64,000 nt of DNA from Deltaproteobacteria bacterium (GCA_029210625.1 JARGFU010000001.1:325806-389805), one strand, 5' to 3'. Shown: positions 7,129 through 60,325, numbered from the stretch's first letter. The notes: a model not told the origin generated them from the letters alone. Translations and numbers: made by a program.

Positions 7129-7145
7129 TTCGAGGAGAAGATCCC

Positions 7146-7928
7146 ATGCGCAACGGCACCCTCATCGCTCCCCTGCTCGCCCTCGGCCTGGCGGCCTGCG
7201 GCCCCGGCGGCTCGGAGGGAGAGGAGGACCTCCGCAGCCTGGAGGTGGCCCTGGCCTCGAGCACCTCGGTGGCCCAGACCGCCTCCATCGCCCTCCAGGC
7301 CATGAACGGCGGCTCGGCCTGCGCGACCGTCGTCACCGCCTGCGCGGCCTTCCCCTGCAGCGGCGAGGTCTCGATCGACCTGGGCGCCGGCTGCCCGCTG
7401 CCCCTGGGCGGGGTGGCCAGCGGGACGGTGAGCGTGACCGGGCAGTGGACGGACGCCACCAGCGCCACGATGACCTCGCAGTTCGTGAACGCCACCTCCG
7501 AGGGCCGGGACGTCGTCGCCGTCAGCGCGACCTCGGTGGTGGTGAGCCAGACGGGCGACCGGGTGGACATCAGCTACGTGGGTCAGGACGTCGAGGTGCG
7601 GGGCGAGATCGCGGTGGCCGCGCAGTCGACCTACGTGCTCGAGGTCGACACCGCGGGCACCCCCGACGACCCCTCCGACGACACGACGACCGTGACCAGC
7701 ACCCAGCAGGGCGTCACGGGCACCGACGTGGTGCAGCTGGCGATCACCTCTGCCGTGATCTCCCCCGACTGCCGGCTCAACCCCATCGACGGTCAGGCGA
7801 CCCTCCAGGAGGTCGGCAGCGGCTCGACCATCTCGATCAACATGGAGACGATCGAGTTCCACGCGGCCTGCGACGGCCAGGCCGAGAACCTCTTCGGCGG
7901 CACCGTCGACCTGGACTTCCTGGAGTAG
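7146..7928 (+). CDS. hypothetical lipoprotein
   Basis: Signal peptide plus LAACG lipobox. GGAGAAG RBS. Compact spacing with the neighbouring genes. Confidence 0.6.
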   Translation: MRNGTLIAPLLALGLAACGPGGSEGEEDLRSLEVALASSTSVAQTASIALQAMNGGSACATVVTACAAFPCSGEVSIDLGAGCPLPLGGVASGTVSVTGQWTDATSATMTSQFVNATSEGRDVVAVSATSVVVSQTGDRVDISYVGQDVEVRGEIAVAAQSTYVLEVDTAGTPDDPSDDTTTVTSTQQGVTGTDVVQLAITSAVISPDCRLNPIDGQATLQEVGSGSTISINMETIEFHAACDGQAENLFGGTVDLDFLE

Positions 7929-7931
7929 CCG

Positions 7932-10097: not shown

Positions 10098-10107
10098 GGC
10101 GAGCGCT

Positions 10108-43212: not shown

Positions 43213-44196
43213 GCGGCCCCCGCCTCCATGTGCCCCTCAAGGCCGTGGACGAGGTCGGCCCCCTGGTCGAGGCCGGCGCCGGCTCCTTCTACGCCGGCCT
43301 CATCCTGCCTCGCCCCGGGGGGGGAGGACGCCGCGGCGGATCCCGCGAGCTGCCTGGTCAGCCGGCGTGCCCACCCCAGCAACAACTTCCAGCGGGTGGA
43401 GGACTTCCTCGAGGCCCAGCGCCAGCTCCACGCCGCGGGCAGATCCCTCTTCCTCACCCTCAACGAGCACAGCAACCCGCCGGAGGTGGTGGACCGCATC
43501 GAGGCCCTCCTCCAGCAGCTGGTCTCGAGCCCGGGGCTCACCGGCGTCATCGTCGCCGACCTCGGCCTCGCCCGCTTCCTCTCGGAGCGCTTCCCCGAGC
43601 TGATCCTGGTGGCCAGCACCGGCCTCGCCCTCTCCAACAGCGGCGCGGTGGAGCTGGTGCGCCGCCTCGGCATCCGGCGGGTGGTCTTCCCGCGGATGCT
43701 CCACCTGGAGGAGATGGCCGCCCTGGTCGAGCGCTGCCCCGAGGTCGAATTCGAGACCTTCGTGATGAACGACCGCTGCCCGAACGTCGACGGGCTCTGC
43801 AACTTCGTCCACTGGGAGGTCGGTGAGACCCACTTCCCCAACCAGTGCCGCTTCGTCCGCCTCGACGGCGCCACGGGTCCCGACCAGCGCCCCGGCAACT
43901 TCAACCTCTCCCTCCGCTTCCGGGAGGACGCCTGCGGCGCCTGCTCCCTCCACGCCCTGCGAGAGGCCGGCGTGCAGCACCTGAAGATCGTCGGCCGGGA
44001 TCGGGGGCTCGAGAACAAGCGGCAGGCGGTGAGCTTCCTGGCCGGGCTCCTCGAGCGGCTGGCGGCCGGCCCCCTCCCCGCCGGCGAGTTCCACGCGCTC
44101 GCCCGCGAGCGCTACGCCGAGACCTTCGGCCGGGCCTGCACCCCCGACCAGTGCTACCTTCCCGGCGAGGGTGAGGCCAAGGAGCCCGCGGCCTGA
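43209..44196 (+). CDS. U32-family (collagenase-like; UbiU/RlhA/TrhP-type) protein, frameshifted at a G8 tract
   Basis: The N-terminus MSGPRLHVPLKAVDEVGPLVEAGAGSFYAGL is in frame 0. From 43325 on, homology continues in frame +1 (RAHPSNNFQRVEDF...IVADLGLARF...FVMNDRCPNVDGLCNFVHW). GTG start overlaps the upstream stop (GTGA). Confidence 0.65.
43317..43324 (+). repeat. G8 homopolymer at the U32 frameshift site
   Basis: cgccccGGGGGGGGagg. Deleting one G restores a continuous U32 reading frame. Confidence 0.7.
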
Positions 44197-44241
44197 TCGG
44201 ACCCCTCGAGGGCCGCTCACCCCGGAAGCGACGGTAGCTCG

Positions 44242-45681
44242 ATGGAACAGGCCCTCTTCGTCTCCTGCCTGGACGATCTGCGACACGCCCACACGCGGCG
44301 CTACGATCGGATCTACTTCGGGGTCGAGGTCTGCCACTGGCTGATGCCGAGCCCCCTCCAGCTGCGCTCGGCCCTCGACTTCGCGAAGCTGCAGGGCCTG
44401 CCGCTCACCCTCGTCACGCCCGTCCTCCCCGAGGTGGGCCTCGAGCGCGTCCGCCCCCTCCTCGCGCTCCTCCCGCCGGGCAGCGAGGTCGTGGTGAACG
44501 ACCTGGGGCTGATCCCCGACGTGAGCGAGGCCGGTCACCACCCCCTCCTGGGGAGGATCCTGCTCAAGGTGAAGCGCGACCCCCGGATCGGCGCCGAGGA
44601 TCTGGAGCACCCGGGCCTGGCCGCGCACCTGCGCGCGTCGAACGTGACCAACCACGCCTTCCAGGCGCTGCTGCGCTCCCTGGGCATCCAGCGCATCGAG
44701 CTGGACAACGTGCAGCAGGGCTACGACCTCGACCTGCCCGACGATCTGCGCACCTCGCTCTATCGCCCCTACGTCTCGGCCGCCGTCACCCGCCGCTGCG
44801 GCCTGAACTTCAGCGAGGGGAACACCGATCTCCTCTGGCGGGACGGGAGCTGCCGGGAGCACTGCCAGGAGACCCAGCTGGAGGTGAGCACCCTCAAGCA
44901 GGTGGGCTCGACGAAGGTCTGGGCCTCCTACCAGGCGCGAGGGGCCAGCCTCTTCTACGCCAACCACGCCGAGCCGGAGGACACCGAGGGCTGGAACCTC
45001 GACCGGGAGGTCCACCTCCCCCGCCCGCCGGTCTTCGCCTCCCTGCCGCCGGACGAGGCCGAGCCCGCCTGGGACAGCGCCTACCGCGAGCAGGGCCTCG
45101 AGGTCGCCTGGAACCACGCCGAGGCCGACCCCCTCCTGCTCGAGCTCGCCGGCCGGGAGCCTCCCCTCGAGGGGGCGAACGCCCGGGCGGTGGAGCTCGG
45201 CTGCGGCACCGGCCGCAACGCCGCCGCCCTGCAGGACCTGGGCTTCGAGGTGCTGGGGATCGAGCGCTCGCCGGCGGCCCTGGCCCTGCTCCGCGAGCAC
45301 CACCCGGCGGTGCAGGCGGTGCTCGGGGACGTGCTCGAGTTCCCCCTGGCCGACGACGCCCACGCGCTGGTGGCCGACTACGGCTGCCTCCATGCCCTCG
45401 CCCCCTCCCGCTGGGGGCGCTACGCCGAGCGGGTGAAGGCCACCCTCGCCCCGGGGGGCCGCCTCCTCCTCTTCGCCCGCCGGCTCCCCGAGGGTCACGC
45501 CCCCGAGGCCCCCGTCTTCGTCGTACCGGGCGGCCTCCCCGAGTGGGGCCTCTCGGAGGCCCACGCCCGTGAGCTCTTCGGGCCCTCCCTCTCCCTGGAG
45601 GAGGTGGTCCCCTACGAGGGCGCCGCCCACGCCTCCGGCGTCGAGCAGTTCAACTACTTCCTCTTCCGGAGGATCGCGTGA
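44242..45681 (+). CDS. fusion protein: U32-family (UbiV-like) domain + class I SAM-dependent methyltransferase domain
   Basis: N-terminal DRIYFGVEVCHWLM...VVVNDLGLI is U32-like. C-terminal VELGCGTGRNAAAL...PGGRLLLF is an MTase motif I / post-I pattern. Confidence 0.75.
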   Translation: MEQALFVSCLDDLRHAHTRRYDRIYFGVEVCHWLMPSPLQLRSALDFAKLQGLPLTLVTPVLPEVGLERVRPLLALLPPGSEVVVNDLGLIPDVSEAGHHPLLGRILLKVKRDPRIGAEDLEHPGLAAHLRASNVTNHAFQALLRSLGIQRIELDNVQQGYDLDLPDDLRTSLYRPYVSAAVTRRCGLNFSEGNTDLLWRDGSCREHCQETQLEVSTLKQVGSTKVWASYQARGASLFYANHAEPEDTEGWNLDREVHLPRPPVFASLPPDEAEPAWDSAYREQGLEVAWNHAEADPLLLELAGREPPLEGANARAVELGCGTGRNAAALQDLGFEVLGIERSPAALALLREHHPAVQAVLGDVLEFPLADDAHALVADYGCLHALAPSRWGRYAERVKATLAPGGRLLLFARRLPEGHAPEAPVFVVPGGLPEWGLSEAHARELFGPSLSLEEVVPYEGAAHASGVEQFNYFLFRRIA

Positions 45682-46763
45682 GCCTCACCCCCCTCAAGGG
45701 CTTCACCCCGGCCGCCTCGACGCCTCGCCTCATCGCCGGCCCCTGCGCCGCCGAGACCCGGGAGCAGGTCCTGGAGGCGGCCCGCGCGCTGGCGGGGACG
45801 CCGGGGCTGATGTGGTTTCGCACGGGGGTCTGGAAGCCGCGCACCCGCTCGGCGAGCTTCGAGGGCGCGGGCGAGCCGGCCCTCGCGTGGCTGGCCGAGG
45901 TCCGGGAACTGGGGCTCGAGCCCTGCCTGGAGGTCGCCCTCCCGCGGCACGTGGAGCAGGCGCTGGCCGCCGGCATCGACTGCTTCTGGATCGGCACCCG
46001 CACCGTGGGCAGCCCCTTCGCGGTGCAGGAGCTGGCCGACGCCCTCGCCGGCTGCGGCGAGGTCTCGCTCCTGGTGAAGAACCCCCTGAGCCCCGACCTG
46101 GGCCTCTGGCTCGGCGCCCTCGAGCGCCTGGAGCGCGCCGGGCTCACGCGCCTGGGCGGGATGCACCGCGGCTTCCTGATGCACTCCCAGGAGGGCCAGC
46201 CCCGGGGAGAGCGCTATCGCTTCAGCCCCCGCTGGCGCCTGGTCCTGGCGCTGCGCCGCCTCCTGCCCGACCTGCCGATCTTCGCGGACCCCAGCCACCT
46301 CGCCGGCCACCGCGAGCTCGTCGGCGAGGTCGCGCAGATGGCCCTCGACCTGGGCCTGGACGGCCTGATGCTCGAGGTCCACCCCCGGCCGGACGAGGCC
46401 CTCTGCGACGCCGAGCAGCAGCTCGATCCGCCCGGGCTCGGCCGGCTCCTCGGCGAGCTGATCCTGCGCCGGCCGGAATCGCCGGCGCCGGCCTTCGGCA
46501 GCGAGCTCGAGAAGCTGCGGGCGGCGATCGACGAGGCCGACGCCGCCATCCTCGAGGCGGTGGCCCGCCGGCTCGGCATCGTCGAGGAGATCGCCCGGCT
46601 GAAGCAGGGGGAGCGGGTGACGCCCTTCCAGCGGGCCCGGATGATCGAGGTGCTCGAGAGCTGGCGGGAGGCGGGCACGAGGCTCGGGCTCGACGACCGG
46701 CTCACGACCGAGCTCTACGAGCTCCTCCACGAGGCCGCCCTCGAGGTGCACTGGAAGCGCTGA
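45678..46763 (+). CDS. bifunctional 3-deoxy-7-phosphoheptulonate (DAHP) synthase (type I-beta) / chorismate mutase (AroQ) fusion
   Basis: LIAGPCAAETREQ and WKPRTRSASFEG blocks are DAHPS/KDO8PS-family. The C-terminal ~90 aa (LEKLRAAIDEADAAILEAVARRLGIVEEIARLK) is a CM domain. GTGA overlap with the upstream gene. Confidence 0.85.
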   Translation: MSLTPLKGFTPAASTPRLIAGPCAAETREQVLEAARALAGTPGLMWFRTGVWKPRTRSASFEGAGEPALAWLAEVRELGLEPCLEVALPRHVEQALAAGIDCFWIGTRTVGSPFAVQELADALAGCGEVSLLVKNPLSPDLGLWLGALERLERAGLTRLGGMHRGFLMHSQEGQPRGERYRFSPRWRLVLALRRLLPDLPIFADPSHLAGHRELVGEVAQMALDLGLDGLMLEVHPRPDEALCDAEQQLDPPGLGRLLGELILRRPESPAPAFGSELEKLRAAIDEADAAILEAVARRLGIVEEIARLKQGERVTPFQRARMIEVLESWREAGTRLGLDDRLTTELYELLHEAALEVHWKR

Positions 46764-48051
46764 GCCGCTCGAGGACCCGCTCGGCCAGGGTGAGCACGCC
46801 CTCGAAGCCGAGGTGCGGCCTCGGGCGCAGGGGGTGGGTGTCCACCTGCGGATAGCCGAACTCGAGCACCGGCAGCTCGGGCGCCCGGCCCGCGATCGCC
46901 CGCGCCTCCCAGGCGCTGCCGATCAACAGATCGAGGGGACCCCGCGTCTCGGCCTCCTCCACGGCCGCCTGGAGCCGCTCCACGCTGGGGTCGAAGAGGA
47001 GGCGCTCGACCCGCGCCTCGACGAGCTCCTGCTCCGGCAGCCCCTCCGGGCCTCCCCGGCTGCGGCAGAAGGCCGTGTCGACCTCGAGGCCGAGATCGTC
47101 GGTGAGGCAGCGCACCATCCCCGGGAGCCACTCCCGGGTGGCGGCGATCATCACCCGCCGGCCGAGCAGGCGATCGGCGACCGTCTCGAGGCGCTCGAGG
47201 ATCCGCTCCTGCTCACGGCCGATGAGCTCGGCCAGGTGGGGCCCCCTCCCCCGCGCCTCACCCAGCGCCTGCAGCCAGGCGCTGCTCCCCTCGAGGGAGA
47301 GGGGCAGGGGCAGCTCGAGCGCCGCCGTCTCGCTCGCCCGCCGCAGCCGCTGGGCGGCCTTGCGGGCCCCGGGCAGCGCGATCAGCTGCTCGCAGGCCGC
47401 CACCCGCTGCAGCTCGGGCCAGGGCGCGCCCGAGAGCCAGGGGGGAAGGAGCTCGAGGCCGAGGAGCCCGGCCAGGCGCGCCAGCTCGAGGAGGTCTCCC
47501 TCGACGTCGCCCTCGCTGCGGTGCGCCAGGTAGCCCAGCAGCCCGAGGGTGTCCGGCTCGACGGCCGGGGCCTCGGCGCAGGCGCCGGCCAGCTCCGCCA
47601 GCAGCACCTCCCAGGCGTCCTCGTAGCTCCGGTCGAGGTGGCGGGTGCGGGCGGCGAGCACCGGCACGCCGTGCCGCTTCTGCAGGGCCCGGGCGACCGC
47701 TCGCAGATCCTCCCCGGCCAGGAGGTAGCGGGGCAGCTCCGAGAGCAGCACCAGCGAGGGCGCGATCCGGGCGAAGGCGCCGTCCGCCGTGCTCATCACC
47801 TCGGACTCGGTGCCCATCACCATCTGGGTGTAGGGGTCCCGGGTGACCCAGAGCCGGTTCGGCGCGTCGGGGCGCGTGAGGGTCTGGCGCAGGTCGTGAT
47901 CGATCATCTGCGCCCGGAAGGCCTCCTCGATGCAGGACGAGCCCCGGTAGAGGAGCAGCGCGTCGGGGATCGCCCCGGCCACCATGAAGACCCCGTCCAT
48001 GAAGGAGGGGGTGGTGCGCAGGGTGTCGTCCCGGGGTGGCGCCTCGCTCAT
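46702..48051 (-). CDS. nitrogenase component-1-like (NifD/K/E/N, BchN/B family) protein
   Basis: GAIPDALLLYRGSSC resembles the conserved GA..IPDA..HG..GC block. GGAGG RBS. ATGA overlap with the upstream gene. Confidence 0.65.
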   Translation of the reverse strand: MSEAPPRDDTLRTTPSFMDGVFMVAGAIPDALLLYRGSSCIEEAFRAQMIDHDLRQTLTRPDAPNRLWVTRDPYTQMVMGTESEVMSTADGAFARIAPSLVLLSELPRYLLAGEDLRAVARALQKRHGVPVLAARTRHLDRSYEDAWEVLLAELAGACAEAPAVEPDTLGLLGYLAHRSEGDVEGDLLELARLAGLLGLELLPPWLSGAPWPELQRVAACEQLIALPGARKAAQRLRRASETAALELPLPLSLEGSSAWLQALGEARGRGPHLAELIGREQERILERLETVADRLLGRRVMIAATREWLPGMVRCLTDDLGLEVDTAFCRSRGGPEGLPEQELVEARVERLLFDPSVERLQAAVEEAETRGPLDLLIGSAWEARAIAGRAPELPVLEFGYPQVDTHPLRPRPHLGFEGVLTLAERVLERLSASSAPRGRPRGGARRARS

Positions 48052-50147
48052 GTCCTGACCTCCGGTCCGCGGAAGGCCGCCAGCCTGCGGCGCGAGTCCA
48101 GCCGCCGCAGCAGCCCGCGGAGCCGGCCGTGGCCGCGGCGATGGCCGGCCTCCCCCATCTCCAGGAGCTGGATGCCCACCGGCGCCGCGCCGGCCGCCCA
48201 GATCTCCCGGCCGGCGTTGTGATCGCAGTAGACGAGATCGAGGGACGCGTCGGCGACGAGCCGGGCGAGCTCGACCTCGTCCTCGACCCGCAGGCGGCGG
48301 GGCCCTCCGCCGGAGGCGTCCGTGGGCTCGTCGTCGCCGCCGAGCTGCACCAGGACGAGCTCGGCGCCGGGGAAGTCCAGGAGCTCCTCCACCGAGGCGC
48401 CGTAGAAGAAGCGGGGATCGAGCACCTCCTCGAAGCTGCCCTGATCGAAGAGCACGCCGATCCGGATGGGCTGCTCCGAGGCGCGCAGCCCGGGCAGCGC
48501 GCTCGCCGCGCCCGCCTCGCCGCCGAGGTCGCGGCCGAGGAAGCGATGGATCGCCTCCAGCCACCGGCGCAGGCCCCGCGGCCCGTAGGGTAGCGCCAGC
48601 TCCAGGTAGGGGAGCTCGAAGCCCTCGAGGAAGCGGGTGAAGGTGTGGCGGATCGGCTCCCAGGGAGAGACGAGGGTCAGGGCCGCCTGGCCGAAGCGCG
48701 CCTCGGCGTCCGCGCCGCGGTAGGGGAGCACGACCTCCCCCAGGGCGAGGCCGTGCCGCTCGAGGGTGCCGGCCAGATCCGCGATCCAGGGGGCCTCGGC
48801 CGGGCCGTAGCCCACCAGGTTGATCCGGGGCGCCCCCTGCAGAGCGGCCGCCGCGCCCTCCTGCGCCTGCACCCGCTCCAGGAACTTGTGCCACCAGTTG
48901 CGCGACTGCGGCTCCTCGAAGCCGGCGAGCACCGGCTCCAGGAAGAGCGCGTCGCTGGCCGCGGGCTCGACGCAGCGGCGGCAGGCCGCCTCGGGGGCGT
49001 CCCCCACCATGTGGAACTCGCAGCCCTCCATCACCCGGGGCCGGGTGCCGGGGAAGCGGCGCACGGTCTGATCGACGATCTGCGCCAGGGTGCGCTCACC
49101 GCCGGTGACCGAGATCGTCTCGTCCAGCCCGGTGACCCGCACCCGCTCGATCTCCATGCGCTCCCGGGGATCGTGACCCCGCCAGGGGCGGAAGCTCGTC
49201 TCGATGCTCCGTCCGAGGGCGCCGGTCCCCATGGCGCACTCCCGCGAGGCGTGGAGCACCATCGGGTCGCTGTCGCGAAGGAAGTTCGCCTCGGCGGTGA
49301 GGCCAAAGGTGTCGGCGTCGCCCCAGGCGGAGAAGAAGCGGCTGCTGGCGTGAGGATCGACGCCGGCCCGGTAGCAGGCCGAGATGAGGCTCTGGCGTTG
49401 CCGCGCGGGCTCTCCCCCGGACTCCGGGGAGGGCTCGCTGGCCGGCGCCTCGGGGGGTGGGCCGGCGGGCGGCTCGGGGGGATCGTCCTTCGGCACCCGG
49501 GCCCAGCCCTGGCGGCCGCCGAGGGTGCGCAGGAGCAGGAAGGTGAGGGCGGTGAAGACCTCCGCCTCGAGCGGCCCCTGCGGGATCAGCCGGCCACCGG
49601 CGAGGGCGAAGCCCTCGCTCTCCTCTCCGGTCTCGCGCAGCAGCACCTCTCCCGCGGCGCCGCCCTCGTCCTCGAGCAGGAAGCGCACGGCCTCCCCCTC
49701 GGCCTCCTCGAGCGCCCTCAAGCACCAGCCGGACCAGAAGGGCCGGCCCAGGGGCAGGAGCCCGGCGATGGCGTCGCCGATCGCCTCGGGGGTGAAGGGG
49801 ATCGGCTCTCCCGGGAGCTCCGGGGCGAGCCAGGGAGCGAAGCCCGCCTCGAGGGCCTGCGTCAGGCGGCGGTGGAAGGCCTCCAGCTGGCGGCGGCTCG
49901 CCTCCCCCCGGGGCAGGCCCTCGCCGCCGATCAGGCGCCAGGCCCCCAGCCCGAGGACCGGCCCCTCCCGGGAGGCGGCGCCGGCCAGCTCGAGGATCAT
50001 CGCCCGCCGGTGGCTGCCCTCACCCCAGGCCAGCTCGAGGCTGCCCTCGGCGGTGGGCCGCAGCCGGGCGGGGCCCTCGCTGCGCGTGCCGAACTTCTCG
50101 GCGAGGTGAGAGAGGACCGAGTCCAGGGGCGGCGGTGCCGAGAACAT
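48048..50147 (-). CDS. nitrogenase component-1-like protein with ~350-aa N-terminal extension of unknown function
   Basis: The C-terminal half shows Oxidored_nitro-like blocks (RINLVGYGPAEAPWIADL..). Tight coupling, 6 nt downstream of the nifH-like stop. Confidence 0.6.
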   Translation of the reverse strand: MFSAPPPLDSVLSHLAEKFGTRSEGPARLRPTAEGSLELAWGEGSHRRAMILELAGAASREGPVLGLGAWRLIGGEGLPRGEASRRQLEAFHRRLTQALEAGFAPWLAPELPGEPIPFTPEAIGDAIAGLLPLGRPFWSGWCLRALEEAEGEAVRFLLEDEGGAAGEVLLRETGEESEGFALAGGRLIPQGPLEAEVFTALTFLLLRTLGGRQGWARVPKDDPPEPPAGPPPEAPASEPSPESGGEPARQRQSLISACYRAGVDPHASSRFFSAWGDADTFGLTAEANFLRDSDPMVLHASRECAMGTGALGRSIETSFRPWRGHDPRERMEIERVRVTGLDETISVTGGERTLAQIVDQTVRRFPGTRPRVMEGCEFHMVGDAPEAACRRCVEPAASDALFLEPVLAGFEEPQSRNWWHKFLERVQAQEGAAAALQGAPRINLVGYGPAEAPWIADLAGTLERHGLALGEVVLPYRGADAEARFGQAALTLVSPWEPIRHTFTRFLEGFELPYLELALPYGPRGLRRWLEAIHRFLGRDLGGEAGAASALPGLRASEQPIRIGVLFDQGSFEEVLDPRFFYGASVEELLDFPGAELVLVQLGGDDEPTDASGGGPRRLRVEDEVELARLVADASLDLVYCDHNAGREIWAAGAAPVGIQLLEMGEAGHRRGHGRLRGLLRRLDSRRRLAAFRGPEVRT

Positions 50148-50153
50148 CTGGGC

Positions 50154-51017
50154 TCACGACCCCCGCTGGCTCCCGGACCGCGCGGCCCGGGCGTGCTCCT
50201 GGAAGAGGGCCCGCAGCTCGACGTCGGAGAGCGGGGTGGGCACGATCCGCTCGAGGGCCGCCTCGTCGGCGATCGCCTCGAAGATCGTCACGAGCGCTCC
50301 GCTGGCCTCGCCGGTGGCCCCCTCGCCGCTCCGGAAGAGGGGCTCGCCCTCGAGCTCCGAGAGCACCACCTCCTCGGAGAAGGGGAGGTGACCCACCAGG
50401 CGGGTCTGCAGGGCCTCGGCGAAGCGCTCGAGGAGGCGCAGCTCCTCCGGGCTTCGCACCTTGTTCCCGATGATCCCGGCGACCCGGGCCTGGCCGATGT
50501 CGGAGAGGTTGTCGACGCCGCGGGCGATGTTGTTGGCGGCGTAGAGCGCCATGTACTCGGCGGAGGTGATGAGGAAGACGTCCGAGGGGATGTCCTCCCG
50601 CAAAGGCGTGGCGAAGCCACCGCAGACCACGTCCCCCAGGACGTCGAAGAAGGCCAGGTCGTAGGTGCGCTCGAGCTCCATGGACTCCCGCACCATCTCC
50701 AGCACCAGGCTCACCGCGCGGCCGGCGCAGCCGGTCCCCGGCTCGGGCCCGCCGGTCTCGATGACGTCGACCCCGGTGGGGGTCGAGACGATGAGCCGTT
50801 GCAGATCCTCGGGCCCCATCCGCCCGACCAGGCGGAGGAACTCCTGCATCACCGTGGGCACGGGCTCCCCCCGGTGATGGGCCAGGGTCGAGTCGTGCTT
50901 CGGATCGCAGCCCACCTGCAGCACCCGCAGATCGCGGCTCGCGCCCACCGAGGCGAGGCCCGAGCAGAGGGTCGACTTCCCGATCCCTCCCTTGCCGAAG
51001 AGGATGATCCTTCGCAC
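50154..51017 (-). CDS. NifH/BchL/ChlL-family ATP-dependent reductase iron protein homolog
   Basis: GKGGIGKST P-loop, GCDPKHDST, both cluster Cys (CAGR, VCGGFA). GTG start with an AAGGAAG RBS. Confidence 0.9.
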   Translation of the reverse strand: MRRIILFGKGGIGKSTLCSGLASVGASRDLRVLQVGCDPKHDSTLAHHRGEPVPTVMQEFLRLVGRMGPEDLQRLIVSTPTGVDVIETGGPEPGTGCAGRAVSLVLEMVRESMELERTYDLAFFDVLGDVVCGGFATPLREDIPSDVFLITSAEYMALYAANNIARGVDNLSDIGQARVAGIIGNKVRSPEELRLLERFAEALQTRLVGHLPFSEEVVLSELEGEPLFRSGEGATGEASGALVTIFEAIADEAALERIVPTPLSDVELRALFQEHARAARSGSQRGS

Positions 51018-52588: not shown

Positions 52589-53008
52589 GTGTTTCGCCTG
52601 CTCGAGGAGCGGCCCGGCTCAAAGGGGGCACCGGGCGCCGCCACCGAGCTCGAGCCCGCGGAGCTCTCGGGCGCCACCGGCCCGCGGATCGTCTGCGCGG
52701 GCTGCCTGCACGTCCTCACCCGCGGGAGCGAGCGCATCCCCGTGGAGGGCGAGCACGAGCACGTCCGGGTGAACCCCTTCGGCTACGCCTTCCGCTTCGC
52801 CTGCTTCGCCCGGGCGCCGGGCTGCGTCCTGCGGGGCGAGGCGGAGCGCACCGCCACCTGGTTCCCGGGCCGCGCCTGGCGCTACGCCCACTGCGGCGGC
52901 TGCGGCGGACACCTGGGCTGGCACTGGGAGCAGCTCGCCGGCGAGGGGAGCTTCTTCGGGCTGATCGTCCCCCGCATCACCGAGCTACGCGACGCCCCCG
53001 AGGCCTGA
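52589..53008 (+). CDS. CULT-like (cereblon/Mss4-like beta-tent) zinc-binding domain protein
   Basis: CAGC...(~75 aa)...HCGGCGGHLGWHWE mirrors the CxxC...CxxC...GW motif of cereblon-type thalidomide-binding domains. GTG start with an AGGAGA RBS. Confidence 0.5.
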   Translation: MFRLLEERPGSKGAPGAATELEPAELSGATGPRIVCAGCLHVLTRGSERIPVEGEHEHVRVNPFGYAFRFACFARAPGCVLRGEAERTATWFPGRAWRYAHCGGCGGHLGWHWEQLAGEGSFFGLIVPRITELRDAPEA

Positions 53009-53018
53009 AGGCCGAGCT

Positions 53019-55181
53019 TCAGCGGCAGACCGAGAGGTAGCGGGTGGTCCCGAAGACCTCGTGGGGCTCGACCTTGCAGTGGCGCCCCCCGCTGCAGTCG
53101 GCGTCGACGCAGCAGCGGGCCAGGCAGACCCCGGCGCCCAGGTCGCAGACCCCCGAGGCGCACTCGGCGGGGTGGGTGCAGGGCGCGCCGACCACCCCGG
53201 TGGCCGTATCCGGCGCCAGGAGGCAGAGGTCGAAGTCGCCGTAGGCTCCGTAGTTCTGCTTGCCGCAGAAGTGCCGGCGGCCGTTCACCGCGCCGGCGCA
53301 GTCGGCGGCGGTGCAGCAGGGAAGCGTGCAGTAGTCGAGGACGCAGTCGTTGGCGTCCTGCTGCCGGTCGTAGTCCCCGCACCAGGCGTTGGCGTCGGCC
53401 GGACAGCTCGCGGGCGTGGCGCAGGAGGTGTCGTAGGAGACCACCGCCGAGCAGAGCCCCGCCCGGCAGCTCTGGGTGGGCGCGGCCGGGGGCGTGGCGC
53501 AGCCGGCGGTGCCCAGGTCGTCCGCCGGCGCGCCGGCCAGGCAGGCCAGGCGCCCGCCGGAGACCACCGAGCAGACCTCCCCCGGGCAGTGGGCGCCGGT
53601 GCAGCAGCTCTCCTTGCAGACCCCGCCCTCGCAGACGCCGCTGCGGCACTCGGCGTCGGCGATGCAGGGCGCGTGGGCCCGGGCGGCCAGGCCCAGGGCG
53701 GCGTCGGGCTGGCAGAGGCGCAGCATGCAGCCGGAGCAGGCGGCGTCGGGGTCCTTCTCCGGGCGGCAGACCCAGCCCGCCGGGCAGTCCGCCTGGCGGC
53801 AGCACTGCGCGCTGCAGAGGGTCCCGCCGCCGAGATCGTCGACGCCCAGCCCCGAGGCGCAGGCGGTGCAGATCCCGCCGGGGCAGGGCTGGCCCACGTC
53901 ACCGTAGTCCACCGCCGAGCAGCGCCCGCTGCCGGGATCGCAGGTCTGGCCGTGGGGGCAGTCGTACTCGCGGTTGCAGCCCGCGACGCAGTAGCCGCCG
54001 GCCTCGGGCAGCCCGCCGCCGTCGGTGTCACAGACCGTGCTCGGCGGATTGCACGCCGCGTCCGAGAGGCAGTCGCGCGCCTCGCAGTGGCCGGCCGAGG
54101 GCCCCGAGAGGAGGCAGCGCTGCGCCGCCGGGCAGTCGGCGTGGGAGGTGCAGCCCGGCACGCAGGCGCTGCCCTGACAGACGAAGCGCGGCGGCGCGCA
54201 GTCGGCGTCGGCGCCGCAGCTCGAGGGCAGACAGATCCCGCTCGCCAGGTGGCAGCTCTCGCCGCCGGCGCAGTGCCCGTCCGAGGTGCAGCCGGGCTCG
54301 CAGAGCTCGGCCACGCAGCGCGGGGCGCCGTCGGGGCAGTCGGCGTCGGTCCCGCAGGGGGGCATGCAGAAGCCGGAGGTGGGGCTCGCCGGATCGAGAT
54401 CGCAGCTCGGCCGGTCGGCCAGCTCGCAGTCGGCGTGGGCGGCGCAGGGCGGGTGGCAGCGGCCGTCGAGGCCACAGTTGGGCAGGGTGAGGTCCCGGCA
54501 CTCGCTGCTGGTGCGGCAGGGAGGCAGGCAGCGGCCGCTCACCGGCTCGCAGACCGGGAGGGCGTCGGGGCAGGCCGCCCCCGGGCAGCGGCCCTGACAG
54601 AGGCCCGTGCCGGGGTCGCAGACCGGGAGGGCCGGCGGGCAGTCGGCGTCCCGGGCGCAGGGCCCCTGGCACTCGGTGGTGTCGGGGTTGCAGTTGGGCA
54701 GGTCGGCGTTCGGGCAGTCGAGGTGATCCGCGCAGGGATCGTAGCAGCGGCCGTCGGTGCCGCAGTAGGCCTTGCCGATGGCGGCGCAGGAGGTCTGCGG
54801 GCAGGGCGCCAGGCAGACGCCGGCCGCCTCGTCGCAGTTGGGCTCGAAGCCGGGGCAGGGCCAGATCGGACAGGGGGGCCGGCAGAGACCCGCGACCGGA
54901 TCGCAGACCGGGGTGGCGGGATCGATGCAGTCGGCCGCCACCGCGCAGGCGGCGAAGCAGACGCCGAAGCGAGTGTCGCAGTTCGGGCGGGACCCCTGGC
55001 AGTCATTGCTCGAGGTGCAGCCCGGCACGCACTCGCACTCGTAGCAGACCTCTCCCACGACACACTGCGTGCAGTCGCAGGGGAGCGGCTCCTTCGGGCA
55101 GCCACCCAGCAGGAACGAGAGCGAGAGGATGGAGAGCGCGATCCCCCGGTCGAGCCAAGTCATCGGAGAACCATAGCGCAT
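53019..55181 (-). CDS. large lipoprotein built from ~25 Myxococcus-type cysteine-rich repeats
   Basis: Lipobox FLLGGC. Repeated C-x3-5-DC-x5-8-C-x4-8-G-x-C units such as SNDCQGSRPNCDTRFGVC and DADCPPALPVCDPGTGLC. GGAGG RBS. Confidence 0.8.
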   Translation of the reverse strand: MRYGSPMTWLDRGIALSILSLSFLLGGCPKEPLPCDCTQCVVGEVCYECECVPGCTSSNDCQGSRPNCDTRFGVCFAACAVAADCIDPATPVCDPVAGLCRPPCPIWPCPGFEPNCDEAAGVCLAPCPQTSCAAIGKAYCGTDGRCYDPCADHLDCPNADLPNCNPDTTECQGPCARDADCPPALPVCDPGTGLCQGRCPGAACPDALPVCEPVSGRCLPPCRTSSECRDLTLPNCGLDGRCHPPCAAHADCELADRPSCDLDPASPTSGFCMPPCGTDADCPDGAPRCVAELCEPGCTSDGHCAGGESCHLASGICLPSSCGADADCAPPRFVCQGSACVPGCTSHADCPAAQRCLLSGPSAGHCEARDCLSDAACNPPSTVCDTDGGGLPEAGGYCVAGCNREYDCPHGQTCDPGSGRCSAVDYGDVGQPCPGGICTACASGLGVDDLGGGTLCSAQCCRQADCPAGWVCRPEKDPDAACSGCMLRLCQPDAALGLAARAHAPCIADAECRSGVCEGGVCKESCCTGAHCPGEVCSVVSGGRLACLAGAPADDLGTAGCATPPAAPTQSCRAGLCSAVVSYDTSCATPASCPADANAWCGDYDRQQDANDCVLDYCTLPCCTAADCAGAVNGRRHFCGKQNYGAYGDFDLCLLAPDTATGVVGAPCTHPAECASGVCDLGAGVCLARCCVDADCSGGRHCKVEPHEVFGTTRYLSVCR

Positions 55182-55211
55182 CGCAGCCCCTCCGAGCTCC
55201 CGTGGAGAGGC

Positions 55212-55255
55212 CGTGGACGTGTACGTGGACGTGGACGTGCACGTACACGTCCACG
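55212..55255. repeat. (ACGTNN)7 hexanucleotide tandem repeat with 14-nt inverted-repeat arms (CGTGGACGTGTACG ... CGTACACGTCCACG)
   Basis: Second member of the hexamer family seen at 35211. Sits between the rSAM stop (55279) and the Cys-rich lipoprotein start (55181). Confidence 0.7.
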
Positions 55256-55278
55256 GGTTCTCCCCCGACCACCTGACC

Positions 55279-56820
55279 TCAGCCCCGCAGGACCCCCATG
55301 AGGATCTTCAGCCCCTCGACGGTCGCGGGGCCCGGCTCACCGCCCTCGACGCGGTAGCCGCCGCTCGGCTTGCTGCGCTCCTGCGCCAGCCAGAAGGTCA
55401 GCCGCGCGCCCTCGGGGCCCTCGAGGGAGAGCTCGGCCCGCTGGCCGTCCACCGAGAGCTCGAGGGCCGTCCAGCGCAGCTCGCCGAAGGGGGCCGCCGC
55501 GCGCAGGCGGCCGAGGCGGCCGCGCAGGCGGCGCTCGCCCCGGCCGAGGAGATCGCGGCCCGGCGGGTGCACCGGCCGCTCGCCGCCGGCGAGCAGCCCC
55601 TCGAAGAGGGCCAGCAGCGCCTCGTAGACCCCCGCCTCGTCGTCGGGCGCCGAGCGCAGGTGGATCGAGAAGTCGGCGAAGCCGCAGAGGCCCACCTCGG
55701 AGGCGGGGCGCAGGGCGAAGACGAGCTCCCCGGGCTCACCCTCGAGGTGCAGCTCGAGCTCGTTGTCGGCGGTGAGCGAAGGCGCCGCCGCGCCGAAGGC
55801 GGCGAGGGGGCCGAGGGCCGCGGCGCGCTGACCGGCGGCCCAGAGGTGGGGCCAGAGCACGCGCCGGTTCGGGTCGGCCTCGCGCAGCTGCTCGACGTTC
55901 ACCGGCTCGAGCTCCTCGAGGCCGTAGAAGTCCCGGTAGGTCTCGAAGGTCCCCGAGCAGCGCGCGGTGAAGACGCAGGACGCGCAGCCGGTGGTCTTGA
56001 GCTTGTCGGTGCGCTTGTCCTCGTACTTGTCCCAGGGCGCGGAGAGCGCGTCGTCACCGTCGACCGAGACCGTGTAGGTCATCTCGCCGTCGTGGTGGAT
56101 CCACCGGGCGAGGTGCGGCGCCACGCAGTAGGGCAGGTTGCCGATGTTGAGATCGAAGTCGCCGGCGACGCCCTGCGCCAGGGCGGTGAGGGGCCCCCGC
56201 AGCTCGGCGTAGCTCGGGAGGATCGCCCGCAGCTCCTCCTCCTCGCGCACCCCGGCGTCCCGCGGCCGCATCATGTCGAGGTGGAGCTGGTCGATCCCGT
56301 AGCGCTCGATCAGCTCGGGGAAGTGCTGCACGGAGGCGGCGTTGCTCTTCACCACGCACATGTTCGCCGAGACCCGCTCCCCCCGCTCGCGCAGGCCCTC
56401 GAGGGTGGCGAGGATCCGGCCGAAGGAGCCCGGGCGGCGGGTGGTGGCCTCGTGGGCCTCGGCGGTGGCGCCCTGCAGCGAGAGCCGCCAGCGCAGCGGT
56501 GCGCCGAGGGCGATGAGCTCGTCGATGTAGCTGCCCCGCGCGGTCTTCACGCCGTTGGTGAAGAGGACCACCTCCTCGAAGCCCAGCGCGGCGCAGCGCT
56601 GCAGCACGGCCTTGAAGCCGGGCTGGAGGGTGGGCTCACCGCCCAGGAGGGTGATCTTCCGCAGGCCGTGGGCGTGGGCCGCCTCGATGTGCTCCAGGAT
56701 CGGCTCCACCGGCATCGGCCCCGCCTCGCCCCAGGAGGTGCGCTGCCCGCTGACGCAGAAGACGCAGCGGTTGTTGCACATGTGCCCGAGCTGGATCTCG
56801 GCCTGGCGGGTCGGCTCCAT
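55279..56820 (-). CDS. radical SAM/SPASM-domain enzyme with novel C-terminal domain (paralog of 7932-10097)
   Basis: CNNRCVFC is a CxxxCxxC motif. CASCVFTARC is a SPASM-type motif. The C-terminal LELSVDGQRAELSLEGPEG motif is shared with the 7932 gene. AGAAGGTAG RBS. Confidence 0.85.
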   Translation of the reverse strand: MEPTRQAEIQLGHMCNNRCVFCVSGQRTSWGEAGPMPVEPILEHIEAAHAHGLRKITLLGGEPTLQPGFKAVLQRCAALGFEEVVLFTNGVKTARGSYIDELIALGAPLRWRLSLQGATAEAHEATTRRPGSFGRILATLEGLRERGERVSANMCVVKSNAASVQHFPELIERYGIDQLHLDMMRPRDAGVREEEELRAILPSYAELRGPLTALAQGVAGDFDLNIGNLPYCVAPHLARWIHHDGEMTYTVSVDGDDALSAPWDKYEDKRTDKLKTTGCASCVFTARCSGTFETYRDFYGLEELEPVNVEQLREADPNRRVLWPHLWAAGQRAAALGPLAAFGAAAPSLTADNELELHLEGEPGELVFALRPASEVGLCGFADFSIHLRSAPDDEAGVYEALLALFEGLLAGGERPVHPPGRDLLGRGERRLRGRLGRLRAAAPFGELRWTALELSVDGQRAELSLEGPEGARLTFWLAQERSKPSGGYRVEGGEPGPATVEGLKILMGVLRG

Positions 56821-56829
56821 GGCTACCTT

Positions 56830-59064
56830 CTAGTCTCCCTTCGGGGTGTGGACCAGCGAGGCGAGGGCGGCGCCCGCGGCCGGCAGGTCCGCGGTGCCCA
56901 GGCGAAAGACCTCGACCTGCTCGCAGCGGGCGATCAGCGCCTCGAGGTCCGGGCGATCGAGGGAGGGCAGCTCGAGGCAGCTCTGCAGGAGCGCGGCCGC
57001 ACCCTCGGCGGCCGGGAGGGCCTCGAGGCCCCCGGCCTGCGTCCGGTCCGGGAGGATCAGGGCCCGCAGGGGAGCCGGGCCCTCGGCCGGGAGCGAGAGC
57101 CAGCGCAGGGCGTCGGGGTCGGCGGGGTCGCGCGCCGTCAGCTCCAGCCGCAGCCCGGGTGGCAGCAGGCGCTCCCCCTCCCCCTTCACGGTGACCGGCT
57201 TGGAGAGGCCCCGCACCTCGCCGCCGGGGTCGAGCGCGACCAGCTCGTCGCTCTGGTACCCGGCGCCCGCCGCGACCGCGTGCGCGCAGAGCAGGCTCTT
57301 GCCCGCGCCGCTGACGCCCGGGATCACCACCGCGCCGGCCGGGCCGCTCAGCGCGGCCGCGTGGAAGAGGGGCTCGCGCCCGGCGCCGGTCAGCCCGCAC
57401 CACGCGGCCTCCACCAGGGATCGCAGGGCGCTCGAGGCGTTCGCGTCGCCCGCCGGCTCGCCGTCGACGAGGAGGTAGTGGCGGGTCAGCGCCTCGGGGG
57501 AGGGCCGGCGGCTGTGGACCTGGATCCAGCCCAGGATCTCCCCGCGCCCGTCCGCCGCCTCGGGCAGGAGGTGGGCGGAGAGCCAGGGCGAGAGGAGGGC
57601 CCAGGCCTCGGGGCTGGCCTCCAGGTAGACCTGGCCGCGCAGCTGCGGCAGGGCCGAGAGGACGGCCCCCGCGCCGAGCGACTCGCGCAGGAAGAGCCCG
57701 GGCCGCGCGGGCGGGGCGTCCAGGGGGCGCTCCCCGGGCTCGCCGAGGGGCCAGCGCCGCGGCGGCGCCTCCGGGGCGGGCGGCGCCTCCGGGGCGGGCG
57801 GCGCCTGCTCCAGGAGCAGGCCCTCGCGCGTCAGCGCCGAGCGGACCTCGCGCAGATCCTCGTGGAAGGCGGCCTCGCCGCCGGGCTCGCCGTAGGCCCG
57901 GGCGAAGTGGGCGGCGGTGGCCTCCACGCCCTCCCCCGCGGCGAAGTGCTCGAGGGCCTCGGCCGCCGTGGCGTTGAGGAGGTGGACCTTGCCGGCGCCC
58001 CGCCGCAGGAGCAGCCGCTCCTCGCCGCAGTCGAAGGACTCGACGCCGGGCGCGAGGTGGAGCGCCGCCTCCGGGGCCGGCGCTCCGGGCTCGCCGGGCG
58101 GGAGGTAGTCGCAGCGGGGGTTCTTCGCTCTCGCGTCACCGAGCTCGGTGAGGGGCAGCGCGCGGCAGTCGAAGCACTGGGCCTTGCGATCGCAGCCGCG
58201 GCAGTCCTCGACGTCGTCGACGGTGAGCGCCCAGAGCCCGGCGAGGGGCCCCTCGGCCAGCACCCGCGGCAGCGGCGTCTCGGCCACGTTTCCCACCACC
58301 GCCGAGCGGGAGAAGATGCAGGGGGTGACCCGGCCCGAGGGGTCGATGGCGAGCTTCCCGTCCCAGCAGGTCGCCTGCGCCGCGTTGCCCCCGGGGGCGT
58401 GGAGCGTGGCCCAGGCCGAGTCCCGGCAGGCGGTGCAGGAGGGCACGTCCCCCGGCCGGGAGGCGGTGCGCCCTCGCCCGGTCGGACGGACGGGATCCAC
58501 CGAGAGGGGCGTGAGCACCCCCAGCCGCCGCACCAGGCTCTCCACCGCGGCGGCGTCGCCGGCGTTGCCCTCGGTCAGGACGGTGGCGACGCGCAGGTGC
58601 AGGCCCACGGCGCAGACCCGGCGGATCGTCTCCACGGTGGCCTCGAAGCTGCCCTCGACCCCGGTGACGGCGTCGTGCACCGGGGCGCGGGCGGAGTGGA
58701 GCGAGATGGCCAGGGCGACGCCGTGGCGGGCGAGGAAGGCGAGGTCGTCGTCGGAGAGCCGGGTCCCGTTGGTGAAGAGCTCGATGGCGAGCCCGCGCCG
58801 GCTGGCGTGCTCCACGAGGCGCCGCCAGTCGGGATGCGCGGTGGCCTCGCCGCCGGTGAACTGCACCGAGCTGCCGCCGGCGGCGACGATCTCGTCGAGG
58901 AGCTCGAGCCAGCGCTCGGTGGGCAGGCTGCGGTGCGGCGTCTCCGGCGTGCTGTGGGTGTAGCACTGCTCGCAGCGCAGGTTGCAGGCGTGGGTGAGCT
59001 CGAGCCAGGCGAACTCGAGCCCTCCCTCGCCGCGCCCTGCCGGCGCGCTGGATCCCGCCCTCAT
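56830..59064 (-). CDS. multidomain RiPP-maturase-like protein: radical SAM/SPASM + PqqD-like RRE + HprK-like P-loop (putative peptide kinase) domain
   Basis: CNLRCEQC is a CxxxCxxC motif. CTACRDSAW is a SPASM-region motif. HLLNATAAEALEHFAAGEGVEATAAHFARAY is a PqqD-like fold. GVSGAGKSLL is an HprK-type P-loop. Start MRAGSS (59064) was chosen over the upstream GTG. Confidence 0.8.
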   Translation of the reverse strand: MRAGSSAPAGRGEGGLEFAWLELTHACNLRCEQCYTHSTPETPHRSLPTERWLELLDEIVAAGGSSVQFTGGEATAHPDWRRLVEHASRRGLAIELFTNGTRLSDDDLAFLARHGVALAISLHSARAPVHDAVTGVEGSFEATVETIRRVCAVGLHLRVATVLTEGNAGDAAAVESLVRRLGVLTPLSVDPVRPTGRGRTASRPGDVPSCTACRDSAWATLHAPGGNAAQATCWDGKLAIDPSGRVTPCIFSRSAVVGNVAETPLPRVLAEGPLAGLWALTVDDVEDCRGCDRKAQCFDCRALPLTELGDARAKNPRCDYLPPGEPGAPAPEAALHLAPGVESFDCGEERLLLRRGAGKVHLLNATAAEALEHFAAGEGVEATAAHFARAYGEPGGEAAFHEDLREVRSALTREGLLLEQAPPAPEAPPAPEAPPRRWPLGEPGERPLDAPPARPGLFLRESLGAGAVLSALPQLRGQVYLEASPEAWALLSPWLSAHLLPEAADGRGEILGWIQVHSRRPSPEALTRHYLLVDGEPAGDANASSALRSLVEAAWCGLTGAGREPLFHAAALSGPAGAVVIPGVSGAGKSLLCAHAVAAGAGYQSDELVALDPGGEVRGLSKPVTVKGEGERLLPPGLRLELTARDPADPDALRWLSLPAEGPAPLRALILPDRTQAGGLEALPAAEGAAALLQSCLELPSLDRPDLEALIARCEQVEVFRLGTADLPAAGAALASLVHTPKGD

Positions 59065-59156
59065 ACGACCTGGCAGTATAGGCCGCCGTCGGCAGGATGC
59101 GGTTGCAGGACGACCCGAAAGCCTGTCATCTTCGGCTGGAGAGAGGACCCAACCCC

Positions 59157-59402
59157 TTGGCGAAGAAGGAAGACCTGAAGCCACCCACCGAGGAGGCGGC
59201 CGACCCGGTGCGCCGGGGCAAGCGCCTGCGCCGCTACCTCGCGCCGAAGATCCGGACCCTCGCCCTGCCGACCCTCCAGGCCAGCCCCGCCTGCGGACCG
59301 GCCGGCTGCCCGCCCAACCTCCAGGGCTGCGGACCCAACGTCTGCGGTCCGGTCATGCCGCCCCCGAGCTGCGGACCCGCGGGCTGCGGGCCCCGCAACT
59401 GA
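59157..59402 (+). CDS. candidate Cys-rich precursor peptide (core ACGPAGCPPNLQGCGPNVCGPVMPPPSCGPAGCGPRN)
   Basis: A small ORF in the 345-bp gap directly upstream of, and divergent from, the maturase. TTG start with a GGAGAGAGG RBS; an alternative ATG lies at 59097. There are five CGP motifs in 40 aa, encoded by a CTGCGGNCC nucleotide repeat. Confidence 0.45.
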   Translation: MAKKEDLKPPTEEAADPVRRGKRLRRYLAPKIRTLALPTLQASPACGPAGCPPNLQGCGPNVCGPVMPPPSCGPAGCGPRN

Positions 59403-59409
59403 CGCGGCG

Positions 59410-59907
59410 TCACCAGGCGACGACGCCGGCCCGGCGCAGCAGCACCAGGGTGTCGGCCACCTGCGGCCGCAGGCGAGCGAGGCTGACCTCGTAGCGGCCG
59501 GCGAGCGAAGCGCCGAGCGCCCGCACGCTGCGCTCACCGTCGCAGAGCTCGAGGATCTCCCGGGCCGTCTCGTTGAGCCGCAGGCGGGCGCCCGCGGCGG
59601 TCGAGACCTCGACCTCGGTGGCGGAGATCCGCTCGACGCGCAGCTCCGCGGTGATCCGTGGCCGCTGCCGGGCGAGGCGCCGCCAGCGAAAGATCGAGCG
59701 CGCCCCGAGCGCCGCTGGACCGAGGGACTCGAGCTGCAGGGCACCCACCAGGATCGCGGCCGAGCCGGCGCCGAGCAGTCCACCGATCAGATCACGTCGG
59801 CTGAGGACCCGCTCGTGGGACCGAGGGGCCGTGCTTCCCCGATCGATTGCTGCTCGGTTGTTCACACTACCTACGACCTCCGGGGAGGACCCCCCGGATG
59901 GGCTCAT
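59410..59907 (-). CDS. PqqD-family (RRE-like) small protein with N-terminal SRRDLIGG Tat-like/hydrophobic segment
   Basis: The C-terminal 90 aa (RLRLNETAREILELCDGERSVRALGASLAGRYEVSLARLRPQVADTLVLLRRAGVV) match the PqqD signature. Ends 8 nt from the precursor ORF. Confidence 0.5.
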   Translation of the reverse strand: MSPSGGSSPEVVGSVNNRAAIDRGSTAPRSHERVLSRRDLIGGLLGAGSAAILVGALQLESLGPAALGARSIFRWRRLARQRPRITAELRVERISATEVEVSTAAGARLRLNETAREILELCDGERSVRALGASLAGRYEVSLARLRPQVADTLVLLRRAGVVAW

Positions 59908-59962: not shown

Positions 59963-60325
59963 CTAGAGGCGGGGGGCGAGGAAGCGGGCGATGGCCAGCA
60001 TGTCCTCCCAGCCGATGCGGGAGAAGGTCAGGGCCACGCCCGGGGCCTCCTCGTCGCAGCGGACGACCCGGCCGGAGAGCCGAAGCTCGTCGTCGAGCTC
60101 GGGGATGGTGAGGGTGAGGGGGACCACCTGCCCCACCGCCGCCTTCACCCCGGTGAGGTAGACGCCGGTCAGGGAGAGGTTGCAGGCCTCGAGCTCGCGC
60201 TCGCCGCGGCGGGTGGGCACCCGGACCCGGAGCGCCCCTCCGACGCGCGGGGGGCGGCCCCTCCAGCCGGAGGGGCGTGAGGTGCGGGTCTGGAGGGCAT
60301 CTTCGAAGGGCAGGGTCGCGTCCAT
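59963..60325 (-). CDS. PilZ-domain (c-di-GMP-binding) protein
   Basis: RRGER...NLSLTGVYLTG matches the RxxxR / (D/N)xSxxG PilZ motifs. ~120 aa. Confidence 0.7.
   Translation of the reverse strand: MDATLPFEDALQTRTSRPSGWRGRPPRVGGALRVRVPTRRGERELEACNLSLTGVYLTGVKAAVGQVVPLTLTIPELDDELRLSGRVVRCDEEAPGVALTFSRIGWEDMLAIARFLAPRL

Follow-up and report, generated by a model that had tools for sequence, protein, structure and literature searches.

The 64-kb window analyzed here, by which we mean the whole stretch of 64,000 nucleotides, is part of an NCBI metagenome-assembled genome (MAG) named "Deltaproteobacteria bacterium" (locus tags P1V51_016xx), where it lies on a 530-kb contig. Its G+C content is about 75%, and codon-position G+C was used to tell real genes from the numerous spurious open reading frames (ORFs). 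We focus on a locus that we consider a credible, and rare, candidate for a new family of peptides that are ribosomally synthesized and then post-translationally modified (RiPPs). At its center, a small cysteine-rich ORF lies divergently to a gene whose predicted product joins a radical S-adenosylmethionine (SAM) core, a SPASM domain, a PqqD-like RiPP recognition element (RRE) and an HprK-like P-loop domain. The genes and features are as follows, in window coordinates.

53019-55181, minus strand: cysteine-rich lipoprotein gene (NCBI start 55163, MDF1561704.1).
55279-56820, minus strand: second radical SAM enzyme, here called rSAM2, 513 aa.
56830-59064, minus strand: fusion maturase, 744 aa, with Pfam and NCBIfam matches.
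56833-57633, minus strand: HprK/PEPCK-fold P-loop domain of the fusion, with Walker A GVSGAGKS at 57295-57318, then S-D-E.
57805-58059, minus strand: RRE/PqqD-like domain of the fusion, with a Pro-rich linker after it.
58111-58437, minus strand: SPASM domain of the fusion (C210, C233, C249, C288, C291, C297, C300, C318).
58597-59001, minus strand: radical SAM core of the fusion, with CxxxCxxC as C27/C31/C34.
59065-59156: divergent intergenic region between fusion and precursor genes, 92 bp, read from the sequence.
59157-59402, plus strand: small Cys-rich ORF, the candidate precursor, 81 aa (NCBI MDF1561707.1 / P1V51_01615).
59410-59907, minus strand: stand-alone PqqD-like protein (Pfam PqqD 1e-10).
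59963-60325, minus strand: PilZ gene, followed by an SDR gene and chorismate synthase.

The small ORF occupies the plus strand of a 345-bp gap (59065-59409). Here the third-codon-position phase has 0.90-0.97 G+C, and G+C at first positions exceeds that at second positions as for plus-strand genes. The start codon is TTG at 59157, preceded by the ribosome-binding site GGAGAGAGGA, and the 81-aa translation is identical to the NCBI gene call; by these measures the ORF is a real gene. Longer gene models of 101 aa (ATG 59097) and 784 aa (GTG 59184) were dropped on the evidence of third-position G+C, orthologue N-termini and the NCBI call, as was a structured RNA in the gap, for which Rfam gave no family match. 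The promoters of both the fusion and the precursor gene presumably lie within the 92 bp that separate them. The encoded peptide has a leader with the segment Y27-L-A-P-K-I-R-T-L (59235-59261) and, from about S43 (59283-59399), a Cys/Gly/Pro core with 7 Cys and 5 CGP motifs. An earlier note on this DNA had placed in the gap a small ORF with five CGP motifs near its C-terminus, and exactly five are present, all within the last 37 residues. These five motifs are not due to chance: the window has only 38 CGP over its six frames, every other 40-aa stretch contains at most two, and in 20000 codon-position shuffles of the ORF the count never rose to three.

Pfam recognizes Radical_SAM (2.7e-22) and SPASM (1.3e-4) in the fusion protein. 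The three radical SAM cysteines and the eight auxiliary cysteines are kept in four divergent fusion members, and the SPASM domain is by this pattern a complete two-cluster domain. The PqqD match (1.5e-3, 19.2 bits) is below the 23.4-bit gathering cut-off, so that the RRE call relies on the structural model; the corresponding domain of the homologue P0129 scores 4.5e-10. The C-terminal 265 aa match NCBIfam HprK_rel_A (TIGR04352) at 1.2e-9 (8.7e-14 in the homologue P0001), with 37.7 bits (51.3 in P0001) against a cutoff of 200 and over profile positions 87-162 only. A PDB sequence search with this C-terminal domain returned generic P-loop matches to gluconokinase only, and it took NCBIfam and the fold search to place the kinase domain. 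For the C-terminal half, an AlphaFold model built from 3 sequences and of moderate confidence (pLDDT 67.6) shows the RRE as beta3-alpha3, then a Pro-rich linker that is disordered, and an alpha/beta domain. Foldseek comparison with the PDB relates the alpha/beta domain to ATP-dependent PEP carboxykinases (E 1e-5) and HprK/P (1e-2), and the fused RRE to lasso B1-leader complexes (TbiB1 5v1u, 6jx3; target TM 0.82-0.86). The C-terminal domain is thus modeled with the PEPCK/HprK superfamily fold. The Walker A motif GxSGxGKS and the subsequent D-E pair are invariant among fusion members, and the fusion maturase looks functional from its residues and its model. The fusion of radical SAM/SPASM, PqqD and HprK-type domains described in the earlier note is therefore upheld as to its domains, the last through NCBIfam HprK_rel_A and the PEPCK/HprK fold and not through the Pfam family Hpr_kinase_C.

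The fusion architecture is rare, with five versions found among billions of proteins. Its relatives are P0001 (locus L001, 45% identical), P0002 and P0003 (L002 and L003, from sister samples), a version on a 2.2-kb contig (L004), and P0129 (L010 and L011, 33% identical). Identity among the fusions is 33-52%, and Myxococcia or "delta proteobacterium" MAGs are the source of the related loci. A scan of 185,579 species-representative genomes found only L004 and the L002 genome again, and a JGI metagenome scan gave no relevant match. The C-terminal half taken by itself has 1,685 matches at E <=1e-3 among 1.84 billion representatives.

These loci provide the main support for the small ORF as a precursor gene. 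By tblastn the ORF finds homologues in L001 (E 1e-8) and L002 (1.4e-7), which also match each other (2.7e-10). The sequence in L001 is MSDTPKKVAKAVAGRAARKLVQYVPPQIRSLKVPLMAPPSGVCGPASCGPQGCAPPGPPPGRGRP and in L002 MSDDRNDIEDEALEAAEEAIVDGVKKYVRPRIRSIKIPIPRAAPSSSCGPYACHPQICSPVG..., each on the strand opposite the fusion. At the same divergent position L010 has a weaker candidate, a 42-aa ORF with a ribosome-binding site and the sequence ...GPCGPGCTGP. Thus, in four of four loci (window, L001, L002 and L010) an ORF lies opposite in strand to the fusion gene, 0.1-2 kb away. L003 and L004 end too near the fusion to inform on the peptide. The earlier note had held that its proposal would fall if the small ORF were not conserved; that objection fails, since the ORF is found next to the fusion in the divergent loci L001 and L002. 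A word-indexed search with the peptide returned nothing beyond the peptide itself, and no CGP peptides were found in five loci holding rSAM2 without the fusion. The set conserved across the compared loci is, on gene content, the peptide plus the fusion.

The three full peptides (window, L001 and L002) have Y-x-x-P-x-I-R-S/T-L/I-x-x-P in common, followed after about 10 residues by P/A-S-x-x-C-G-P-x-x-C and then a Cys/Gly/Pro tail of variable length. The Tyr of the leader motif stands 19-21 residues ahead of the first Cys, and all three carry a Ser at position -3 of that Cys. C-G-P does not vary among the four peptides, the L010 candidate included, and core length and sequence vary strongly among orthologues. 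A constant leader with a variable core is the RiPP signature, and on this generic pattern the small ORF qualifies as a precursor. The leader motifs YLAPKI, YVPPQI and YVRPRI fit the YxxPx motif of lasso RREs. Discrete lasso-peptide RREs and the RRE of the LPP family bind [Y/W]xxPx[L/V/I/F/A] (PMC13381572), and in lasso leaders the YxxPx element lies at positions -17 to -12 (PMC10368454).

The stand-alone PqqD-like protein adds a further RRE to the locus. It was found in both loci that extend far enough (window and L002), and it bears out the Tat-signal-like PqqD protein of the earlier note, combining the Pfam PqqD match with, ahead of the RRE, a twin-arginine-like SRRDLI followed by a hydrophobic segment. 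The L002 orthologue (7066-7506; lasso_PqqD 1.8e-6) has the same architecture, with GRRRFL and a hydrophobic stretch, which in both proteins is 15-18 residues long and lies ahead of the RRE. At 59935-59906 a promoter-like site overlaps with the first ATG of the gene, whose true start may lie downstream of 59907. An exported or membrane-anchored RRE would be unusual. In L002 a 569-aa HExxH lipoprotein is encoded at 7751-9460 (minus strand; Peptidase_MA_2 7.5e-5, below threshold); 7 nt separate the end of its gene from the precursor-like ORF, which is on the same strand, and the window has no homologue of it. This protein is possibly a leader peptidase, judged by its motif and position.

Compared with known systems, the fusion resembles the sacti- and ranthipeptide maturases AlbA, SkfB, CteB and PapB in pairing radical SAM with a SPASM domain of 7-8 Cys, in carrying an RRE on the same polypeptide and in having a Cys-rich precursor. 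The StsB, AlbA and SkfB models are among its best NCBIfam matches. Nevertheless, it falls far below the cutoffs of this group (StsB 87.6 bits vs 625; AlbA 78.9 vs 850), and no match above cutoff was obtained to any of the curated maturases AlbA, SkfB, StsB, PapB and SCIFF. It differs from them also in the fused kinase and the lasso-type leader, and the CGP-repeat precursor matches no described family. A second likeness is to paeninodin-type lasso and LPP clusters, with which the locus shares a YxxPx[LVIFA] leader, a B1-like RRE fold and an HprK-like kinase with an RRE (PMC13381572). In contrast to these, kinase and RRE are fused to radical SAM/SPASM and the core is Cys-rich. No lasso cyclase, B2 protease, SpI peptidase, NTP transferase or MsbA-like exporter is encoded within ~8 kb, and neither a lasso cyclase (Asn-synthetase-like) nor a B2 transglutaminase-like protease was found in the window from 41 to 64 kb, in L001, in L002 or in L010. 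Among the LPP parts (SpI-like peptidase, NTP transferase, MsbA-like pump, RRE and HprK kinase) only the RRE and the HprK-like domain are present. The third comparison is with the ~400-aa PqqD-HprK-like proteins ("HPr-rel-A system", TIGR04352/TIGR04353). The C-terminal half of the fusion aligns with them end to end (P0141, P0201, P0243), and a stand-alone PqqD often accompanies them (P0128 locus), but unlike the fusion they are without any radical SAM domain. Because the C-terminal half matches this large family, the novelty lies in the radical SAM/SPASM part added N-terminally and in the new precursor family. In the literature we found no description of a radical SAM, HPr-kinase and PqqD/RRE combination.

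We put forward that the locus encodes a small RiPP-type system whose conserved core is the divergent pair of an 81-aa precursor and a single four-module maturase, an explanation that we regard as somewhat better than even. This retains the core idea of the earlier note, a Cys-rich precursor served by a radical SAM/SPASM-RRE-kinase maturase and a PqqD-like protein, which the conserved linkage and the RRE-type leader motif support. From the observed genes, domains, catalytic residues, conservation and linkage we infer a course of binding, chemistry, phosphorylation and export. An RRE, either the fused PqqD-like domain or the stand-alone PqqD-like protein, would bind the leader at Y-x-x-P-x-I-R-S/T-L and so hold the core, rich in Cys, Gly and Pro (P/A-S-x-x-C-G-P-x-x-C...), in the active site of the radical SAM domain. 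There, the core would be modified by the 5'-deoxyadenosyl radical together with both auxiliary clusters of the SPASM domain, Cys-to-carbon thioethers of the sacti/ranthi type being the most likely product by analogy. Such chemistry is plausible given the likeness to known maturases. HprK-like kinases depend on an RRE when they phosphorylate Ser of lasso and LPP precursors (PMC13381572). By the same analogy, the HprK-like P-loop domain with ATP may phosphorylate the same tethered peptide, the likely target being the Ser three residues before the first Cys, and we infer a product with both thioether and phosphoserine. The SkfB-like rSAM2 may add a further modification in the window and in L001, and the stand-alone RRE with its Tat-like N-terminus may, speculatively, pass the product to the envelope.

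A bolder version goes further, and we hold it to be doubtful. Here one polypeptide would both cross-link Cys and phosphorylate the same leader-tethered peptide, making this a new RiPP class in which a lasso-type leader and RRE had been recruited to radical SAM chemistry, Tat "hitch-hiking" of the modified peptide on the stand-alone RRE replaced an ABC exporter, and the leader was cut outside the cytoplasm, for example by the L002 HExxH lipoprotein. The envelope route is suggested by the Tat-like RRE together with that lipoprotein. If the proposal is true, the fusion would be the first radical SAM/SPASM maturase to carry a kinase of its own, and the locus the first reuse of the lasso/LPP-type YxxPx leader-RRE module for radical chemistry. 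It would also offer a compact two-gene system (precursor and enzyme) for doubly modified Cys/Pro-rich peptides, illustrate how RiPP pathways arise when modules for recognition, tailoring and core formation are shuffled, and introduce with the Tat-signal-bearing RRE a new idea for RiPP export. The rarity of the family, with its five versions, restrains its present weight.

Several observations weigh against a precursor-maturase pair of this kind. Characterised sacti- and ranthipeptide maturases have an N-terminal RRE, whereas that of the fusion is C-terminal to SPASM. Pfam Hpr_kinase_C does not match the C-terminal 265 aa, so that kinase activity, as opposed to plain NTP binding, can only be presumed. 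The leader motif is present in three peptides only and is absent from the L010 candidate, and the 344 bp upstream of the fusion start on the short L004 contig contain no peptide. No leader peptidase or exporter is conserved, the adjacent HExxH lipoprotein being confined to L002. In that same locus, from a long-read MAG, the precursor-like ORF (7337-7744) lacks a stop at the expected place and extends antisense into the PqqD gene, and the fusion gene (9619-11899) is split by a frameshift; the cause is either assembly indels or decay of the locus.

Alternatively, the peptide might stay in the cell, as in the pyrroloquinoline quinone (PQQ) and mycofactocin pathways, and be made into a cofactor or a metal- or redox-active peptide and not a secreted natural product. 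PqqD-type chaperones and SPASM enzymes define both of those pathways, the best NCBIfam matches of the fusion include PqqE and MftC, and the absence of a conserved exporter or protease would suit a cofactor-like peptide, as would the position of the locus among housekeeping genes (aroC, PilZ) in conserved synteny. However, all cofactor models score far under their cutoffs (88 vs 381; 84 vs 265), the strong variation of the core is typical of a natural product and not of a cofactor precursor, and an envelope destination is indicated both by the Tat-like RRE and by the lipoprotein peptidase of L002. We consider this origin unlikely. A different chemistry with the same players would have the SPASM enzyme act like the anaerobic sulfatase-maturating enzyme (anSME), oxidizing the Cys of the C-x-P motifs to formylglycine or a related product. 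C-x-P is the core of the anSME substrate motif (C/S)-x-(P/A)-x-R, anSME is itself a SPASM enzyme with the same auxiliary-cluster pattern, and the invariance of C-G-P in the peptides would fit. Yet anSME is outside the 25 best of 62 NCBIfam matches, the Arg of CxPxR is not conserved in the peptides, and the C-x-x-x-x-C spacing resembles that of cross-link donors, which makes formylglycine formation quite improbable. Finally, the small ORF might not be a substrate at all but a regulatory or metallothionein-like peptide, with the fusion acting on something encoded elsewhere. Just 3-4 instances of the peptide are known, the one in L010 is without the leader motif, and any read-through from the PqqD gene would run antisense to the ORF. 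On the other side, it is the fusion, not rSAM2, with which the ORF is linked, and an RRE-type motif is conserved at a leader-like distance from the Cys core; we find a non-substrate role quite improbable as well.

The precursor-maturase pair being thus favored, the remaining genes on the minus strand require separate consideration. In rSAM2, which the earlier note had taken for a second radical SAM/SPASM enzyme, Pfam finds Radical_SAM only and no SPASM domain is detectable. Four extra cysteines are conserved (C232, C279, C282 and C288) and probably form one auxiliary cluster, and a C-terminal beta/alpha domain of ~180 aa is without an assigned family. The protein is closest to SkfB. Its closest model is HxsC/HxsC4 of the His-Xaa-Ser system, which likewise has no full SPASM and directly follows a SPASM partner; both scores are below cutoff (HxsC 83.9 bits, cutoff 500; HxsC4 62 vs 268) and, unlike in that system, neither a His-Xaa-Ser precursor nor HxsA is present. 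Only in the window (9 nt) and L001 (11 nt) does rSAM2 follow the fusion, a linkage seen in two of five loci, and in the L002 genome its orthologue is 300 kb away. Its family comprises >655 proteins of 49-57% identity or more across Polyangia (Minicystis, Polyangium, Byssovorax). Five fusion-free loci were examined: in three, rSAM2 has as neighbors a radical SAM-methyltransferase and another radical SAM enzyme, of 575 aa, and in two it is on its own. We therefore reject rSAM2 as a specific part of the fusion system and treat it as an optional accessory at most, since the family is large and mostly found in other contexts. Clusters of the rSAM2 family were located at L008 3475-7923, L013 1905-5951 and L007 15277-17551, those of L008 and L013 adding two small ORFs each (47/54 aa and 91/107 aa). 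The combination of rSAM2, methyltransferase and ~575-aa enzyme makes up another radical SAM cluster, separate and uncharacterised, that Polyangia conserve.

The lipoprotein (714-720 aa, lipobox LLGGC) contains 109 Cys, or 15% Cys, in repeats of ~22-30 aa with the form CxxxDxDC. The label "Myxococcus-type Cys-rich repeats" of the earlier note was not borne out, with no match in Pfam or NCBIfam even at E up to 10. The idea that the lipoprotein bears CGP or YxxPx leader motifs, or is syntenic, was rejected: no such motif was found in it, and loci L001-L006 hold no homologue. It is absent from L002, the sole homologous locus with complete flanks, where an aldehyde dehydrogenase gene follows the fusion, and in L003 and L010 neither a second radical SAM gene nor a lipoprotein gene lies downstream of the fusion. 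Because it has no family, no motif and no homologue in related loci, we judge the lipoprotein to be probably a bystander neighbor and not a component of the system. The layout of the three minus-strand genes is as the earlier note had described. A single operon is in part supported: fusion and rSAM2 are 9 nt apart, and the lipoprotein gene follows after 97 nt containing a hexamer repeat. Gene contexts and the absence from L002 leave two of the five components listed in that note, the lipoprotein and rSAM2, without support. That the radical SAM enzymes mature this lipoprotein, cross-linking it in the cytoplasm before export as QhpD does QhpC, is scarcely believable to us: the gene is co-directional with no terminator-like site in the spacer, the product has its 15% Cys, and lipoprotein genes also occur near the small ORF in L002 and L010, but the protein is missing from related loci, offers the RREs neither CGP nor YxxPx, and is unrelated to the L002 and L010 lipoproteins, one of which is HExxH peptidase-like.

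Some further features of the window were observed. Within the 97-nt spacer, about seven tandem hexamers (GTGGAC GTGTAC GTGCAC GTCCAC ..., period 6/12/18) occupy 55201-55255. They are mostly alternating purine/pyrimidine and could be a regulatory or Z-DNA-prone element; Rfam returned chance microRNA matches only. Immediately past the end of the lipoprotein gene, the opposite (plus) strand encodes at 52589-53008 a 139-aa protein with paired CxxC motifs and a weak match to Yippee/Mis18 (cereblon-like zinc domain, E 0.022). An orphan nitrogenase-like set is encoded at 46705-51017 (minus strand), with 41320-46760 (plus strand). It includes a NifH/CfbC-like ATPase (Fer4_NifH 3e-65, under the nifH and CfbC cutoffs) and two ~700-aa relatives of component 1, each with an N-terminal extension of ~290 aa. 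Genes beside this set encode a radical SAM enzyme that binds B12, a peptidase of the U32 family, a methyltransferase and a fusion of DAHP synthase with chorismate mutase.

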